Assembly: GCA_002501605.1 (NCBI GenBank)
Contig: DANW01000026.1
Coordinates: 36,871-100,870, forward strand
Direction of reading: 5' to 3'
Origin: Euryarchaeota archaeon UBA28
GTDB lineage: Archaea; Thermoplasmatota; Poseidoniia; Poseidoniales; Thalassarchaeaceae
DNA: 64,000 bases
The notes under the pieces: model-generated
What the model saw: the letters and a program-made list of their open reading frames with translations, nothing else
What the model was told of the DNA's origin: nothing
The model's database searches: none
Made by a program: the position numbers and the translations under genes
Shown here: one piece after another, positions 42,804 to 51,127 of the stretch
How the letters are laid out: the number at the start of each line of letters is the position of its first letter
Position numbering within the stretch: position 1 is the first letter of the stretch

Positions 42804-43976
42804 ATGGAAGAGGATGAGGTATTATTCAGTGTGAGGGAATCAAACCTTGATAGTGGCCTCAGAGGGATGCCAGTAGGAACTTGCGAAACATCCTATGTTG
42901 ACCCACTCAAAGGCGTTCATTACGTTGGATATCCAGTGGAGGATTTGGTTAATCTTGAGGAAGAAGACGTGGTCTTTCTGTTGCTGAATAAAGAACTCCC
43001 GACCCCGGAGCAGTCTGAGAAATTCAGAGCAGAACTCGCTCTTAGAGGGGAAACACTACCAACAGGGGCGTTGAGAGTCTTGGAATCACTCACGCCAGGA
43101 AGTGGGCATCCGATGGACTGGCTCGCCATTGGGATTATGGCTCTCGGGACAGCTGAGCAAACAGGAGATCCAAAGTCAGATTCGATGAACTTAATTGCAA
43201 GAATGCCGGAACTAATGGCCCGTGTATTCTTACTTAGAGGTGGCAAGAAGGAACAGCTTAGACCCAGAAAACCAGAGCTTGGACTTGTCGAGAACTTTGT
43301 CCATATGCTCGGAATTGATGGTGAAGAAGCTGAAAGGATGTGTAGAGTGCTGAGATTCTTTTTCATATTGCACATGGATCATGGGGGAGGCAATCTTTCC
43401 ACGTTCACTGGGAAAGCTGTTGCTTCAGGAAGGGCGTCTGTGTATGCCTCAATGGCCAGTGCGATGAATGCCCTGTCCGGGCCATTACATGGTAGGGCAA
43501 ATCAGGCTGTTTTGGAATTTATACAACGTATAGGGACATCCGATAGAGATGAAATAGAATCATTCGTAAATGCAGAGATAGATTCTAGAAGGCCAATTTA
43601 TGGATTTGGACATGGCGTTCTAAGGGCGGAAGATCCACGAGCGAGGCTCCTGATAGGCCTCGGAGATGAGATTTGTCCTGATAGTGAACTATACAAGATT
43701 GTCAAAGTCTTACGTGAAATCACTCCTGATATTCTAAAGGAAAGACTTCCGAAGATAAGAAATCCATATCCAAATGTAGATCTAGGAAGTGGAATGCTAC
43801 TTCATTCCGTAGGTTTCAGGAAGCCAGATTACTACACCACATTCTTCGGATGGGCAAGAGTGGCTGGAATATGCGCACAGATATTGGATGAGAGAAACTC
43901 AAGAGATGGCAGGGGGACCCCTATTTACAGGCCTAAGTACGTTCCAAAGAACCAGCCATTTAGGAGATTAGACTAG
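42804..43976 (+). CDS. gltA: Citrate synthase
   Basis: LHMDHGGGNLST and GFGHGVLRAEDPRA citrate-synthase signatures. Confidence 0.9.
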   Translation: MEEDEVLFSVRESNLDSGLRGMPVGTCETSYVDPLKGVHYVGYPVEDLVNLEEEDVVFLLLNKELPTPEQSEKFRAELALRGETLPTGALRVLESLTPGSGHPMDWLAIGIMALGTAEQTGDPKSDSMNLIARMPELMARVFLLRGGKKEQLRPRKPELGLVENFVHMLGIDGEEAERMCRVLRFFFILHMDHGGGNLSTFTGKAVASGRASVYASMASAMNALSGPLHGRANQAVLEFIQRIGTSDRDEIESFVNAEIDSRRPIYGFGHGVLRAEDPRARLLIGLGDEICPDSELYKIVKVLREITPDILKERLPKIRNPYPNVDLGSGMLLHSVGFRKPDYYTTFFGWARVAGICAQILDERNSRDGRGTPIYRPKYVPKNQPFRRLD

Positions 43977-45310
43977 TCACCTCTTACAGAAGCCAGAGCA
44001 TCTTCAACAGCTGCCATGGTTATCCTGTCCCCACTTTCCCTCACAATCTTTGCGACCTCCTCTACCTCACTACCCTCGGCTCCTGCGGCTGCAACCATAT
44101 TCATGAGATGCAATTTCATGTGTCCAGCTTGGATACCTACAGTCGCCAAGGCCCTTAGAGCTCCAAGATTTTGAGCCAAACCAGCCGCTGCCATGACTTT
44201 TGCAAGATCGTCAGCAGTCCTCAGTCCCAATAGGGCCACGTTAGCTTGGGCACCTGGGTGTATCCTAACTGCGCCCCCAACTAGTCCAACTGCCATTGGT
44301 ATTTCTATTGAGCCGACCAAGTTCCCCTCACTGTCCTTTTCCCAATGAGTCATTGATCCATATTCTCTTCTATAAGATGCGTATGAATGAGCACCAGACT
44401 CTATTGCTCGCCAATCTTGTCCACATGCTATTGCTATTGGGGAGATTGCATTCATTATTCCCTTATTGTGTGTTGTTGCCCTGAATGGATCTGCAGCCGC
44501 GAAGTGATACGCTTGAACAACTCCATCGATGACATTCAATCCGCCTTCCCTATCTAAACCATTATCGGACATTTCTTCTGGAGTGAATACTGCACTTACT
44601 TTTGCTAATCGATGAACAGCTAAGTTACTTATTATTCTCAGAATCACAGTCCCTGTGCTCAGCTCTTGTATCCTTGGAGCTATGGTTTCTGCCATTGTAT
44701 TGACCGCATTTGCCCCCATCGCATCTCTGCAATCAACCAAAATATGTACGATAACCATGGGCCCAGAGCCCGTCTCAATAATCCGGGCCTCGACGCCTTT
44801 GCATCCACCTCCAAATTTAACGAGTATGGGATCTACTTCATTGCATGCCTCAATCAGTTCACTCTCAGCTGAAAGTATAGCCATCTTGGCGGCCTCTGGA
44901 TCTTCACAACCCACAACTTGAATCTGTCCTATCATAACCGGCTCATCATTGTCAGAAACAAAACCTCCCTTGGAATGACACCTTTTCGCCATGTTAGAGG
45001 CCGCGGCCACAACACTCGCCTCTTCGACTACAAATGGAATTAGGTAATGCTCACCATCAATAATGAAATTTGTTGCAACTCCAATAGGGAGAGAATAAGT
45101 TCCGATCACATTTTCAATCATCCTGTCAGCAACTTCCTCTGAGAGCTCACCAACCGAGGCCCATGCACCCACCATCTCATCATCTAGTCCCGCTATATCT
45201 GCTAGCAAGCTCCTCCTCTCTGGGACAGATAGTTTGTAAAATCCTTTCAATCGACTGCTATCAACTGGCATGTTATCATGTCTCTTAGGCAGAAACACCC
45301 TTCTGTACAT
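43973..45310 (-). CDS. hmgA: Hydroxymethylglutaryl-CoA reductase, class II
   Basis: Near-collinear with my recollection of Pseudomonas mevalonii HMGR: SRLKGFYKLS, IENVIGTYSLP, VVEEASVVAAAS, DAMGANAVNTMAE, ATHNKGIMN, GLVGGA, and ALATVGIQAGHMKLH. Alternative start at 45271. Confidence 0.92.
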   Translation of the reverse strand: MYRRVFLPKRHDNMPVDSSRLKGFYKLSVPERRSLLADIAGLDDEMVGAWASVGELSEEVADRMIENVIGTYSLPIGVATNFIIDGEHYLIPFVVEEASVVAAASNMAKRCHSKGGFVSDNDEPVMIGQIQVVGCEDPEAAKMAILSAESELIEACNEVDPILVKFGGGCKGVEARIIETGSGPMVIVHILVDCRDAMGANAVNTMAETIAPRIQELSTGTVILRIISNLAVHRLAKVSAVFTPEEMSDNGLDREGGLNVIDGVVQAYHFAAADPFRATTHNKGIMNAISPIAIACGQDWRAIESGAHSYASYRREYGSMTHWEKDSEGNLVGSIEIPMAVGLVGGAVRIHPGAQANVALLGLRTADDLAKVMAAAGLAQNLGALRALATVGIQAGHMKLHLMNMVAAAGAEGSEVEEVAKIVRESGDRITMAAVEDALASVRGD

Positions 45311-45386: not shown

Positions 45387-45567
45387 AAAGCGTTAATATC
45401 TCCGTTAACGCTTCGTTAACGCATCATTTAAGCGTTAGAAAAGCGTTAATAATTATAGTACAAAATCGTACTACTAGTCTTATATCGAAAAAAATAATTA
45501 TCTGAAAAGCGTAAATATATGTTAATTTACATACTATTTTCCGTAAATAAACGTTAATATTATTTAC
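45387..45567. repeat. Array of GCGTTAA/TTAACGC heptamers and AT-rich dyads in the hmgA / orc-like intergenic gap
   Basis: GCGTTAA at 45390-96 and 45443-49. GCGTTAg at 45432-38, GCGTaAA at 45509-15, aCGTTAA at 45551-57. CGTTAACGC at 45403-11 and 45414-22. Dyads GTAAAT-N8-ATTTAC (45511-30) and GTAAATAA-N9-TTATTTAC (45543-67). Confidence 0.8.
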
Positions 45568-45582
45568 TCCTTCATTCGCATT

Positions 45583-47430
45583 GTGTCTGTGAAGAGTAGT
45601 ATGCCAGAGGAACTTGGGCTACCATTGCTCAGAGGCAATCCATTCGATCTCAGGCCAATCGAAAGTGGAAGGGCGGAATACTTGGTTGGAAGGGACCGAC
45701 TTATTTCATCATGGAGGGAACACATAGTTTCACAATCCCCGAGAATGATGTTGCTAGTCGGAGAGACGGGCTCCGGGAGGTCATCAATTGTCAGGACTTT
45801 GGCATCCCAAACCAAAAGGAGTTTCGTTGGGCAATTTTGGCCAATGAAAGATCCTGTTAATTCCATAATACATGAGCTCTCCATTCACTTCTGTGGTTTC
45901 GAATCCTCGGGATCCAACCAGAAGATGATAGATGACCTGGTCACTAATTTGGAGGAGTCTTCAGGTAACCTTCCAGTAGTTTCTCTAGACTACCCCTCTA
46001 ATGTAGACTTAGCCCCAGTCCTTTGCTCATTGTCGCCAATACTTCAAAGACTCAGAGCTTTGGTGATTGTAGTACTTACTCCTTCTCAGCTATCTACATT
46101 GGACGAAGAAACTACTGAGTTATATGATGTTCCTGAATACATCCCAAACCTGACAAAAAGTCAGATACAGGATCTTTCAAACAGACTCGTATCTAGGAAG
46201 GCTAGGGAGAAATGGATTATTGATGATGCCCTTCTTTCAAGAATCCACGAATCAACCTCCGGCAATCCTAGAGATGTAATAAGGCTACTCAGGGACCTTA
46301 CTGATGAGAGGAGAGACGTAGGCGCCAAGGGCACTTTAGAGAGGCTAATGCGTTGGCAAAAATCTACTATTGGGATCGGAGATGCCTCAGATGCCATAGG
46401 GGCATCGCAAAAAATTGTGGCTGAGGATGAAGAAAAAACTCGTCATGATAGTATTGGCGAAGAGAGTGAATATATCTCATCTCCACAACATCTACAGGAA
46501 AGACCCAGTCCGGTAGATGAAGCTGACGAAAAATCGGATGTAGATGATTTCTCTAATGAATCGGACATCTTAGACGTCACAAATAAACAATATGATTTAT
46601 TTAAAGAACCAAGTGATTTATGGATTCAGGATACAGAAGAATCTGAAAATAACGAAAAAAGCAGGAATGAGATGGGTAGAGAAACTGTATTTGAACAAGG
46701 TACCTTAGATGATTTTGTTTACATGGAGCCGGGTAGTGAACCTCCAATGTTTAATTCCGGTAACGGTTTCAAAGGACTGGCCAGTAGGTCTAGAGTGGCC
46801 CAAAATTCACAGCCCAATTCAGAGGAAGGTGCCCCATTTATTGAATCAATATCGGAGGTCCCGTCTCTATGGCCAGATAAGGAAACAGAATATCCTGAGA
46901 ACGTTGAAGCTCAAGATGGTATTTTTTTGGATGACAGTTACGATGGCGATAATGTAATCAAAAATCCGAAATCTATCCCTTCCAGTGTTATGTCCACGGA
47001 TTCTGCTCATTGGTCGGTGGAGCCTTCTATGAAATATTCATTACCTAGATTAGAAGATAAAAAGCCAGAAGCTTCACTTTTCGGTATCGATGATTCGCCG
47101 ACCGGTGAAATTTCCAATCTCCCTGTTCCTAAAATCGATATGAGTATGGACGCATATGAGGGAATCAATGCTTGGGAACCCGATCAGCCTCTAGATGAGA
47201 TTCGAAAAACTCTTCTCAACGAAGCCGAACTCTTAGTAATCTCAGTCGCGGCAAAGAGGGAGATATCTCCCTCCGATGCTGAACTACAAGCTAGATTAGA
47301 AGTTGGAAGGCCCAGACTTTCTCAGATATACAATGGCCTGCATAAATCAGGATTCCTGTCTGTAAGAAAACAAGGAAGAAAAAGACTATTCAAAATTACG
47401 GAAGCGGCTAAAAAACTGGTGGAGGCATAG
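45583..47430 (+). CDS. Orc1/Cdc6-like AAA+ protein with degenerate Walker motifs, long acidic linker and C-terminal winged-helix domain
   Basis: GNPFDLRPI...YLVGRD lead-in, P-loop-like LLVGETGSGRSS (Arg in place of Lys), Walker-B-like VVSLDYP, and a sensor-2-like SGNPRDVIRLLRDL. About 300 aa of D/E/S-rich linker follows. C-terminal wHTH-like LEVGRPRLSQIYNGLHKSGFLSVRKQGRKRLFKIT. GTG start; alternative ATG at 45601. Confidence 0.65.
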   Translation: MSVKSSMPEELGLPLLRGNPFDLRPIESGRAEYLVGRDRLISSWREHIVSQSPRMMLLVGETGSGRSSIVRTLASQTKRSFVGQFWPMKDPVNSIIHELSIHFCGFESSGSNQKMIDDLVTNLEESSGNLPVVSLDYPSNVDLAPVLCSLSPILQRLRALVIVVLTPSQLSTLDEETTELYDVPEYIPNLTKSQIQDLSNRLVSRKAREKWIIDDALLSRIHESTSGNPRDVIRLLRDLTDERRDVGAKGTLERLMRWQKSTIGIGDASDAIGASQKIVAEDEEKTRHDSIGEESEYISSPQHLQERPSPVDEADEKSDVDDFSNESDILDVTNKQYDLFKEPSDLWIQDTEESENNEKSRNEMGRETVFEQGTLDDFVYMEPGSEPPMFNSGNGFKGLASRSRVAQNSQPNSEEGAPFIESISEVPSLWPDKETEYPENVEAQDGIFLDDSYDGDNVIKNPKSIPSSVMSTDSAHWSVEPSMKYSLPRLEDKKPEASLFGIDDSPTGEISNLPVPKIDMSMDAYEGINAWEPDQPLDEIRKTLLNEAELLVISVAAKREISPSDAELQARLEVGRPRLSQIYNGLHKSGFLSVRKQGRKRLFKITEAAKKLVEA

Positions 47431-47432
47431 AT

Positions 47433-47726
47433 TTGAGTGACAATGTGGTTGTTACGCATGATCTGGTCAAGAAATATATTGCACTGACAGAGGCCGCTAG
47501 GGAAAAGGCAACTCCTGCCAAATTAAGTGAAGAAAACTCAGAAAAGCTATCATCAATGATTAGAATGTGTGATGATTATCTCTCTGATGCCAAGTACTTC
47601 ATGCAAAAGGGAGATATGGTCAGAGCTTTCGGTGCGATAAACTATGCCCATGCTTGGATAGATGCAGCTGTGAGAATAGGTTTCATGGACGGGAAAGGAG
47701 ATGACAACCTCTTCACACTCCCTTAG
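47433..47726 (+). CDS. DUF357-family archaeal protein
   Basis: 97 aa. DDYLSDAKYFMQKGDMVRAFGAINYAHAWIDAAVRIG matches the DUF357 helical-hairpin pattern. TTG start 2 nt after the previous stop. Confidence 0.55.
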   Translation: MSDNVVVTHDLVKKYIALTEAAREKATPAKLSEENSEKLSSMIRMCDDYLSDAKYFMQKGDMVRAFGAINYAHAWIDAAVRIGFMDGKGDDNLFTLP

Positions 47727-49848: not shown

Positions 49849-49918
49849 ATTTACTCCTCGGACGGCAACCCGACATAAGGCCCCTATAAGAGCGGTTCGG
49901 AAGCCAACCGAATATCAA

Positions 49919-51127
49919 TCAGCGGTTCATGAACTCCTTCTCTATCCTGCTCCCTATTGTGGCAGGTGAGGTATTACTCATTGTAATGTAAGTAGTTCTG
50001 CCCCTTCCAACAGTGGTATTGGTCGACCTCGCTTCCAGTAGCCCTTTGGTTTCTAAAGACTTCAGATGCTTCCAGAAGGTGGTATAACTCCTAGTTTTAA
50101 TTGAAAACTCTTCACACACAAGTTCGTATAGCTTACGAGCATCACCACTGGATATTTCCTCCACCTTACGCAACCTCCTACAAATCCCTAGGAGAATCAG
50201 TTTTTGATGAGTGCCAAGGGAATCAACTTGACTCGGCTCCACTGAAGCTGTCCTAAGGGTACTGGGCATAACATCACCAATATTCACCTCTCCCCTGCCG
50301 TCCATCTCCGCTCTTCGTACAGCAGCCTCAAGGAGCTCAATAGCTAGGCGCGCATCACCGGTCTCAGAAGCAAATCTGCCGATCTTTTCCAATACTTCTT
50401 CACTCACCGAACCGGGCTTACATGAAGCCTCGTAACGCTGTCTGGATATCCCTACAAGTCCCTCGAAGTCATAAGGCTCTAGTCCCAAAACATTACTCTC
50501 CCCCAATCTAGAGATTATCGCCGGTTCTAACATGCTCATCAAGGAAGGGTCCTGACTCACCAGAATCAGTGAAACCGTCCCCTGATTACCCTGCCCCTCG
50601 TCTATTCGAAGAAGTTTGTATATCAAATCACTACTGTCTCTCCTAACAAGCACGTCCACCTCATCCAAAACAAGTATCATGTGGAGCCCTCTCGATCGAA
50701 TGTTTCTCCGTATTGACTGAATAATCTCTCCAGAGCTGAAGCCTCTCTCGGGATGCCTCGAGTCAAGAGACAGAGCAATCTGTTGCAATACTTGGGAAGT
50801 GGAGGGGTGATTCCTACAGTTTACGTGCGAAAGAACAATCTTTCTGATGCCATCCATTTCCCTTACTACATCCTCCCCAAATCTCCTAGTCAGAACCGTC
50901 TTTCCGGTGCCTACATGGCCAACAACTACTGCCCGACCACTGACATTTTCGTTCCCGATACCCATGAACATCGAGGCTAGTGATTCCAGCTCTCTTTCCC
51001 TGCCAACCAATAGAGGAGGGGTCCAATCGAATGATAGGGGCCCTCTGTCTAGAAGGACTTTGCCCGCTCCTATCCTGTCTAAGTACCCCGCCATCAGAGT
51101 ATAATTACCAACATCGTTCTTAGACAT
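49919..51127 (-). CDS. cdc6: Orc1/Cdc6 replication initiator
   Basis: LVGRERELESL, Walker A GHVGTGKTV, Walker B LVLDEVD, sensor-2 GDARLAIELL, and a C-terminal winged helix (..GRGRTTYI..). Confidence 0.92.
   Translation of the reverse strand: MSKNDVGNYTLMAGYLDRIGAGKVLLDRGPLSFDWTPPLLVGRERELESLASMFMGIGNENVSGRAVVVGHVGTGKTVLTRRFGEDVVREMDGIRKIVLSHVNCRNHPSTSQVLQQIALSLDSRHPERGFSSGEIIQSIRRNIRSRGLHMILVLDEVDVLVRRDSSDLIYKLLRIDEGQGNQGTVSLILVSQDPSLMSMLEPAIISRLGESNVLGLEPYDFEGLVGISRQRYEASCKPGSVSEEVLEKIGRFASETGDARLAIELLEAAVRRAEMDGRGEVNIGDVMPSTLRTASVEPSQVDSLGTHQKLILLGICRRLRKVEEISSGDARKLYELVCEEFSIKTRSYTTFWKHLKSLETKGLLEARSTNTTVGRGRTTYITMSNTSPATIGSRIEKEFMNR

Follow-up and report, generated by a model that had tools for sequence, protein, structure and literature searches.

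What is a protein with the layout of the replication initiator Orc1/Cdc6, an apparently disabled ATPase site and a long acidic linker doing immediately beside a cluster of short DNA repeats? The question is raised by a gene at 45583..47430 (+) of a 64,000-nucleotide (nt) stretch, here called the window, from Euryarchaeota archaeon UBA28 (Poseidoniales, Thalassarchaeaceae; contig DANW01000026.1). The original prediction, made from the letters alone, took the product for a non-hydrolysing initiator paralog or an origin-associated DNA-binding factor and recognised no description of anything of this shape. The open reading frame (ORF; 615 aa with its GTG start) and all the motifs named in that prediction are present, and comparison with relatives indicates that the product is probably a sequence-specific, lineage-specific DNA-binding protein in which a long acidic tether follows an ATPase-like domain devoid of catalytic residues. 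Its family is an undescribed one in which known parts are newly combined: an ExeA/AAA_16-like non-hydrolysing AAA+ domain, an acidic disordered linker and an ArsR-type winged helix. In agreement with the prediction, our literature searches found no prior description of the family, database entries carry only the names "hypothetical protein" or an automatic "ArsR family regulator", and the literature on the Poseidoniales origin and on proteins joining ExeA to a winged helix-turn-helix (wHTH) yielded nothing specific. We consider it moderately probable, judging from sequence features, that the protein binds the upstream repeat array cooperatively, that its AAA+ domain oligomerises, and that occupancy of the array represses the unit formed by its own gene and the adjacent DUF357 gene.

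The C-terminal 85 residues (531-615; 47173..47430 (+), a range that includes the stop codon) form an ArsR/SmtB-type wHTH. Modelled alone with AlphaFold they reached a predicted local distance difference test (pLDDT) score of 95, and the model contains the complete a1-a2-a3-aR-b1-b2-a5 order of the ArsR/SmtB fold. All of the 50 Foldseek matches listed are ArsR/SmtB or MarR repressors, with no Cdc6 winged helix among them; the domain superimposes on HlyU, SqrR, SmtB, BigR and CzrA with template modelling (TM) scores of 0.64-0.71 and a root-mean-square deviation of ~2.2 A over 76 residues. The same answer came from a PDB search with a profile of the domain sequence (8 of 11 matches to ArsR-family proteins and the rest to other wHTH repressors, E 4e-4 to 3e-3), and the scores lie below the sequence thresholds of the ArsR families themselves (NF033788, 15.4 vs 55 bits; BigR, 26 vs 155 bits). 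The expected C-terminal winged helix is thus a DNA-binding fold as supposed, but of the ArsR/SmtB and not of the Cdc6 type. Its recognition helix, RPRLSQIYNGL in the window protein and (R/K)xRLSQ(I/L)xN as a family pattern, is nearly invariant across the family, and so is the DNA motif found upstream.

That motif occupies a 272-bp region 5' of the gene, in which a motif scan and alignment recovered about eight GCGTTAA-type sites with ~11-bp phasing. Five heptamer sites within an AAAGCGTTAAY-type unit make up an upstream cluster (45387..45451), at 45390-96 (+), 45405-11 (-), 45416-22 (-), 45432-38 (+; GCGTTAG) and 45443-49 (+), with start-to-start spacings of 15, 11, 16 and 11 bp. A promoter-proximal group (45506..45567), with the promoter placed by position and conservation, comprises GCGTAAA (45509-15), TGTTAA (45521-26), CCGTAAA (45541-47) and ACGTTAA (45551-57), the last abutting a TATA-like box, AATATTATTTA (45556-66), that lies ~28 nt before a GTG at 45589. 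Exact GCGTTAA/TTAACGC occurs four times in the 64-kb window, always within 45390-45449, and degenerate copies reach 45557, so that the gene does adjoin the heptamer array as the prediction held. As a separate observation, the hexamer CGTTAA/TTAACG occurs 14 times in the whole window against ~36 expected from mononucleotide shuffles, with about half of the copies in the array; its depletion elsewhere could reflect CpG scarcity, the expectation being derived from mononucleotide shuffles only.

The array is a property of the family rather than of one genome. Across 80 loci (973 kb), 285 of 337 exact sites are clustered, and each cluster lies in this same intergenic region. An alignment of 43 non-redundant upstream regions shows five sites spaced 15, 11, 16 and 11 bp, which in some lineages are five direct AAAGCGTTAAC repeats at exactly 11 bp, followed on the 3' side by a spacer that varies apart from a short conserved ACT element. 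A sixth site comes next, and then GCGTAA and GCGTGAA/ACGTTAA sites, the last of which runs into a TATA-like ATATTA(A/T)G located ~28-30 nt before the start. The spacer element, CG(N3-5)ACT(A/G) (45467-45475 in the window), is distinct from the heptamer; most lineages have it at a fixed position ~15-25 bp past heptamer five. Because the (C)GTTAA(C) core is nearly palindromic, sites are reversed from one lineage to another without loss of the 11-bp phasing. The array also precedes the gene in deep-branching members, whose proteins are only 22-30% identical and whose GC contents span 39-62%; in deep lineages the cluster takes the form RRR|FFF around a perfect palindrome, TTAACGCGTTAA, an arrangement typical of dimeric wHTH operators. 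The distance from array to gene start is ~223 bp in most lineages examined and ~196-213 bp in a few, whereas that to the divergent HMG-CoA reductase (HMGR) gene varies from 28 to 165 bp. No heptamer array was found at the locus of the ExeA-like outgroup protein P0223, the only ExeA-like locus examined for it. A scan of viral and metagenome contigs with GCGTTAANNNNGCGTTAA was uninformative: among the matches listed, three of 120 metagenome loci were this locus and the rest were unrelated.

The same 43-region alignment identifies the second GTG, at 45589, as the conserved start codon, and this is probably the true start of the gene; an ATG at 45601 is an alternative start, at which some database homologues (609 aa) begin. 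The spacing of 28-30 nt between the TATA-like box and the start fits a leaderless or near-leaderless transcript, and archaeal promoter geometry would place the last heptamer directly 5' of the TATA box, at the position of the TFB-recognition element (BRE). A 106-aa antisense ORF (45564-45884, -) overlaps the 5' end of the gene and shows no sign of being a gene; most likely it merely reflects the coding sequence on the opposite strand. We also considered a decaying pseudogene and rejected the idea, for the gene is neither absent nor pseudogenised in close relatives but full-length in 99 species genomes, with domains 75-80% identical within the order. Searches of the locus with Rfam and PADLOC returned no matches.

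The putative ATPase site departs from the canonical one at each catalytic position and retains the frame around them. Orthologue alignment places Walker A at residues 60-68 (GETGSGRSS; 45760..45786 (+)), with Arg66 in place of Lys, a Walker B-like strand at residues 132-138 (VVSLDYP; 45976..45996 (+)), with Asp136 and without a second acid, and a GNPR-like sensor-2/lid helix at residues 227-239 (GNPRDVIRLLRDL; 46261..46299 (+)). These are the motif states that had been read from the single sequence: Arg for the Walker A Lys, no DE or DD pair, and an identifiable sensor-2. The window protein possesses neither the catalytic Walker A Lys nor a Walker B DE/DD nor an Arg finger, the position equivalent to the RuvB Arg finger (180) being Leu here and Arg in 4 of 27 members. 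Of 46 full-length representatives, 39 carry Arg and 7 carry Lys at position 66, and G60, G63 and G65 are invariant in all of them; the N-domain residues that never vary among 29 diverse members are P20, F21, G60, G63, G65 and D136. In most members the Walker B Asp is followed by Tyr, Phe, His, Leu or Val and then Pro, and an acidic residue follows it in 1 of 41; the sensor-2 Arg230 is conserved solely in the Poseidoniales crown group. The best PDB sequence match of the family profile is 1in6, an engineered hydrolysis-dead RuvB K64R mutant. Since the glycines and Asp136 are invariant and Arg and Lys interchange at position 66, the pocket appears to be under selection; a Lys-bearing orthologue, P0127, has identical synteny and the same upstream array, and such alternation between same-synteny orthologues argues that nucleotide binding is retained. 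Together these patterns suggest a pocket kept for nucleotide and Mg binding, with hydrolysis lost at the base of the family. The description of the ATPase as inactivated therefore holds for the missing catalytic residues but is too strong for the pocket as a whole.

The N-terminal domain (residues 1-262; 45583..46368 (+)) consists of a lead-in, LGLPLLRGNPFDLRP, followed by an AAA+ core and lid, as delimited by AlphaFold, Foldseek and an ExeA-like alignment. An AlphaFold2 model of the full protein, built from a 16-sequence alignment, is confident over residues ~37-256 (pLDDT 70-88), and its strands and helices succeed one another as in an AAA+ core with lid; strands b2 and b3 are separated by two helices (91-104 and 112-124), which in secondary-structure order resemble the initiator-specific motif. 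The top Foldseek matches in the PDB are human ORC1 (E 3.5e-8), MuB (TM 0.61 relative to target) and Drosophila Cdc6/ORC1, and plant NLRs, Vps4, RuvB, RFC and TnsC come next, with E-values at most about two orders of magnitude above that of ORC1. With the E-values of NLR, Vps4, RuvB and RFC so close to that of ORC1, the match is one to AAA+ proteins generally and is not initiator-specific; the modelled domain is an AAA+ fold for which the initiator/loader group is the best fit.

At the level of sequence the relationships of this domain point elsewhere. The window protein matches AAA_16, AAA_22 and nSTAND1, all below threshold. AAA_16 matches all 29 diverse members (window protein, 27.7 bits vs a cut-off of 32.6), the protein falls outside the STAND/AAA_16 families as defined, and profile scans of the window protein and the 29 members found no repeat or sensor domains. 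None of the Pfam or NCBIfam models named for Orc1/Cdc6, nor Cdc6_lid or Cdc6_C, gave a significant match in the 29 members. The window protein scores 14.5 bits on TIGR02928 (cut-off 181.3), over the P-loop region only, which leaves it outside that family, while the genuine Orc1/Cdc6 of the window scores 211 bits with matches to Cdc6_lid and Cdc6_C; BLASTP between the two proteins gave E 0.08. Conversely, an ExeA/TIGR03015-type protein aligns to positions 6-246 of the family hidden Markov model (43.5 bits), including the "L..(N)PF...P" lead-in, and the window protein lies far below the TIGR03015 cut-off (14.2 vs 324.5 bits), so that ExeA-like proteins are an outgroup and do not include the family. 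In a search of 1.84 billion proteins with the N-domain profile, a few proteins outside the family also matched; P0220 and P0223, the two checked whose alignments span the entire domain, are ExeA-like and retain GKT and an acidic Walker B. From these alignments the nearest sequence outgroup of the family is the ExeA-like AAA_22 ATPases. The Orc1/Cdc6 layout proposed earlier survives as an architectural analogy, with an AAA+ core and lid whose best structural matches are ORC1, Cdc6 and MuB, but no Orc1/Cdc6 model is reached; the "NPF..P" lead-in, taken for an Orc1/Cdc6 feature, aligns instead with the N-terminal lead-in of ExeA-like AAA_22 proteins.

The two domains are joined by an acidic disordered linker of 268 aa (residues 263-530; 46369..47172 (+)), delimited by composition, AlphaFold and alignment, which bears out the long acidic stretch noticed at the outset. 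It contains 22.8% D+E, with an isoelectric point of 4.08 and a net charge of -40, and its pLDDT is below 50 save for a few residues and an island at 371-385. Within the order the linker is 40% identical, against 75% and 80% for the two domains, and it contains conserved motifs: QGTLDDFVYMEPG (residues 372-384; 46696-46734 (+)), GFKGLASRSR (family GFxGLxxRSR; residues 395-404; 46765-46794 (+)) and SAHWSVEPSM (residues 474-483; 47002-47031 (+)). The other islands recovered include DPDDLW, QGTLDDFVYMEPGTEPP, FGIEDAP and WEPDxPLD, and even the most distant members retain MxPGTxP and GxFxGLxxR. The string QGTLDDFVY (Qxx[L]xxF-like), considered as a PCNA-interacting protein (PIP) box, is at most a hint of one, being conserved only in the crown group, beyond which xMxPGTxP alone persists.

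The N-domain profile recovered 114 clusters (50% identity) from the 1.84 billion proteins, of which the named members belong to Poseidoniales, Thalassarchaeaceae or Poseidonia, and a search of one genome per species found a relative in 99 genomes. The 79 loci kept are from Poseidoniales or from metagenome-assembled genomes deposited only as Euryarchaeota, Methanobacteriota or Thermoplasmatota, and the family is so far confined to Poseidoniales and close relatives. As far as the contigs reach, all 79 share the order HMGR(-), intergenic region, family gene(+), DUF357(+), PIN_9(-), aIF2-gamma(-), S6e(-) and Orc1/Cdc6(-). The family gene evolves faster than its neighbours (33-89% identity vs 72-98% for HMGR). 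In the window the divergent HMGR gene (43973..45310 (-)) shares the intergenic control region, as it does in every locus with enough upstream sequence. The DUF357 gene (47433..47726 (+); Pfam E 5e-21) begins 2 nt beyond the stop codon of the family gene and in the same orientation, as the prediction had noted, and the two genes are probably co-transcribed. DUF357 is among 76 near-universal archaeal single-copy genes (PMC12680538), which puts the family gene inside a housekeeping cluster. The canonical Orc1/Cdc6 gene (49919-51127 (-), the 211-bit TIGR02928 match) lies 2.5 kb from the family gene, and all Poseidoniales loci with enough downstream sequence have it within 2.5-4 kb.

The deep-branching members keep HMGR upstream and DUF357 downstream, and differ in what surrounds these genes. 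Among the six deep-branching loci, L082 has Orc1/Cdc6 directly after DUF357, and two contigs end too early to show where it lies. Four deep lineages carry SMC, an unannotated gene of ~390 aa that is possibly a kleisin, and ScpB directly beyond HMGR (L325 673-6416; L326 888-6492; L327 825-6488; L328 2853-8466), so that with Orc1/Cdc6 downstream the array stands between smc-scpB and orc1; in the window's lineage SMC has lost this adjacency. A further gene of 345-352 aa, here called gene X, is inserted after the family gene in the deep-branching relatives (L325 9812-10861; L326 9650-10687; L327 9716-10768; L328 11845-12885; L081 3042-4100; L082 2092-3129) and is missing from the window. In five of the six loci (not L082) its start touches or overlaps the family-gene stop, and the two are translationally coupled. 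Gene X gave no Pfam or PDB sequence match; its many invariant Trp and Gly residues and helical C-terminus suggest a beta-propeller plus helical repeat.

Another conserved element was noticed between the Orc1/Cdc6 stop (49919) and the S6e start (49848). This element of about 22 nt (49877-49900 in the window) has the sequence GGCCCCTATAAGAGCGGTTCGGAA on the + strand, or TTCCGAACCGCTCTTATAGGGGCC in the direction of the genes, occurs without mismatch in 58-66 of the 79 loci and is among the most widely shared 11-mer strings across them. It is single-copy and without a dyad, hence not an ORB (origin recognition box) pair, and is probably the BRE/TATA of the S6e-aIF2gamma-PIN promoter.

How these parts could work together is best described as a chain of proposals. 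The ArsR/SmtB-type winged helix, probably dimeric like its structural relatives, would recognise the near-palindromic GCGTTAA/TTAACGC heptamers. The AAA+ pocket, through its glycine-rich loop, the Arg or Lys, the next Ser/Thr and the Walker B Asp, would hold nucleotide and Mg without hydrolysing it, for lack of a Walker B Glu and a conserved Arg finger. The domain would then act as a nucleotide-binding oligomerisation or switch module by which several winged helices fill the phased sites cooperatively, while the acidic linker with its conserved aromatic-acidic motifs would tether the domains and may serve to bind partners or to shield the basic winged helix. Occupancy of the site at the TATA box would repress the unit of the family gene and DUF357, an effect to be expected from the BRE position of the last site, and the divergent HMGR promoter would probably be influenced as well. 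An AAA+-winged-helix protein acting as a regulator rather than an initiator has a precedent in Sulfolobales Orc1-2, which regulates transcription and is switched on by ATP binding (PMC9738581). Several considerations weigh against autorepression. A factor other than the family protein could bind the array; a flexible tether of ~270 aa is hard to square with AAA+ oligomerisation imposing an 11-bp phasing; a regulator whose sole visible target, in the window and the related loci, is its own promoter makes an incomplete story; and the conserved proximity of Orc1/Cdc6 together with the SMC-ScpB flank in four deep lineages hints at a chromosome-level role.

This last point leads to the main rival explanation, which we regard as rather unlikely and in which the array is a chromosomal cis-element, namely an origin-proximal centromere, an SMC-loading site or an origin accessory site, on which the protein forms a higher-order nucleoprotein complex in the manner of ParB/parS, SegB, AspA, DnaA or ORC, with autoregulation as a by-product. 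The sites are iteron-like, helically phased, multi-copy and restricted to a single dedicated locus; the AAA+ fold most resembles those of ORC1, Cdc6 and MuB, which forms filaments on DNA, and has a pair of helices between b2 and b3; Orc1/Cdc6 lies 2.5 kb downstream in each Poseidoniales locus long enough and adjoins the operon in L082; and SMC, the candidate kleisin and ScpB occupy the other flank in the four deep lineages. Moreover, the array region is the sole sizeable AT-rich non-coding stretch near orc1, the other large intergenic regions of the window hold no further repeat cluster, and canonical ORBs are absent from the window and the 973 kb of related loci, where searches with TTCCASTGGAAA gave chance-level matches in the window at up to two mismatches, none near orc1, and three scattered matches in the related loci at up to one. 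However, the array is locked to the gene start with its last site on the TATA box, like an ordinary operator; its spacer is not AT-rich in the GC-richer lineages and shows no conservation of the kind expected from an unwinding element; HMGR, aIF2-gamma and S6e intervene between the array and the SMC and Orc1 genes; and SMC is not adjacent in the window. The flanking genes point toward the locus and the GC skew passes from + to -, the opposite of a usual origin; this sign change, near 42-46 kb in the window, follows gene orientation and is unusable as origin evidence. A more specific version, to which we give slightly less credence, is a lineage-specific landmark system beside orc1, and ancestrally also beside smc-scpAB, in which a nucleotide-locked AAA+ oligomer would carry ArsR-type readers on acidic tethers; were it true, the complex would fill a ParB/parS or accessory-initiator role in Poseidoniales.

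The arrangement of the intergenic region also allows the main job of the protein to be control of the divergent HMGR gene, whose product catalyses the first committed step of archaeal isoprenoid lipid synthesis, with the AAA+ pocket sensing adenylate or energy state or another ligand. Regulators are commonly transcribed divergently from their targets, the order HMGR, array, family gene is kept in every locus with upstream sequence, deep-branching ones included, and in Thalassarchaeaceae only 28-33 bp separate the HMGR start codon from the first site, which adjoins a T-rich TATA-like tract. We nevertheless think this distinctly unlikely, with the array-HMGR distance varying five-fold where that to the regulator gene is fixed and no ligand indicated; the A/T tract beside site 1 belongs to the repeat unit itself and is thus not independent promoter evidence. 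Equally doubtful is that another factor, such as the neighbouring Orc1/Cdc6 or a general regulator, binds the array while the winged helix has another target or a non-DNA role. The synteny of the region is so extremely stable that co-occurrence of linked features is automatic, but the register of the array is fixed with the family gene and not with Orc1 or HMGR, the array persists in L082 where the downstream gene order differs, the heptamer is unlike the archaeal ORB consensus, and ArsR-type repressors classically bind inverted repeats 5' of their own genes. Least credible to us is the initiator paralog itself, that is, a genuine, very divergent Orc1/Cdc6 serving as a second, hydrolysis-dead initiator subunit. 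The order AAA+, lid, winged helix, the GNPR-like sensor-2 motif and the Foldseek result (human ORC1 on top, archaeal Orc1/Cdc6 listed) speak for it; the lack of any match to Orc1/Cdc6, Cdc6_lid or Cdc6_C profiles in 29 members, the ExeA-like AAA_22 proteins as closest sequence relatives outside the family, the ArsR-type winged helix and the generic nature of the AAA+ fold match speak against it.

Autorepression through the array thus remains the reading we prefer, and the protein it describes differs from each of the known systems on which it draws. Archaeal Orc1/Cdc6 shares the AAA+ core and lid followed by a C-terminal winged helix, and would share the reading of repeats near the gene; unlike it, the family has the 268-aa linker between the domains, a winged helix of the ArsR/SmtB type, Arg in most Walker A motifs, no Walker B Glu and no Arg finger, and a GCGTTAA motif unrelated to ORB. 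Orc1-2 has the same architecture, but loss of hydrolysis is lethal there (PMC9738581), whereas a non-hydrolysing site, as read from the sequence, would be the natural state of the family. ExeA/GspA-like AAA_22 proteins align over the whole N-domain including the lead-in; in contrast to the family they keep GKT and DE, have no long linker and occur in unrelated contexts. One of them, P0223 (L323 2114-3193), has the same two-domain order: this 359-aa archaeal ATPase with intact GKT/DE is directly fused to an ArsR-like wHTH, is encoded near LigT, PCNA and Topo VI A, and may be a short, catalytically intact relative of the family architecture. With ArsR/SmtB proteins (HlyU, BigR, SqrR, SmtB, CzrA) the C-terminal 85 residues share the full fold and an LSQ-type recognition helix, and the inverted or palindromic sites 5' of the gene are a further likeness; those proteins are stand-alone metal or persulfide sensors of ~100 aa with a single 12-2-12 operator, whereas here the domain is the tail of a 615-aa protein, below the family sequence cut-offs, with an eight-site phased array. 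ParR/parC, SegB, pNOB8 AspA and plasmid Rep iterons place a small DNA-binding domain on helically phased repeats before its own operon, with autoregulation through these repeats and one dedicated locus per replicon. The likeness to these centromere- and iteron-binding proteins is by analogy only, with no homology and no ParA/ParM-type motor gene in the operon.

The uncultured Poseidoniales (Marine Group II) rank with the most abundant archaea of the surface ocean, and their gene regulation, chromosome organisation and replication are almost unexplored. The locus offers a defined protein-DNA pair in both families of this order, made up of a syntenic gene, a nearly invariant recognition helix and an array with mapped sites. 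The natural AAA+ module, which probably binds nucleotide without hydrolysing it, and the Arg/Lys interchange in its Walker A are useful for the study of pseudo-ATPases. If the array marks an origin- or centromere-like site, it would be the first such element for Poseidoniales and considerably more interesting.

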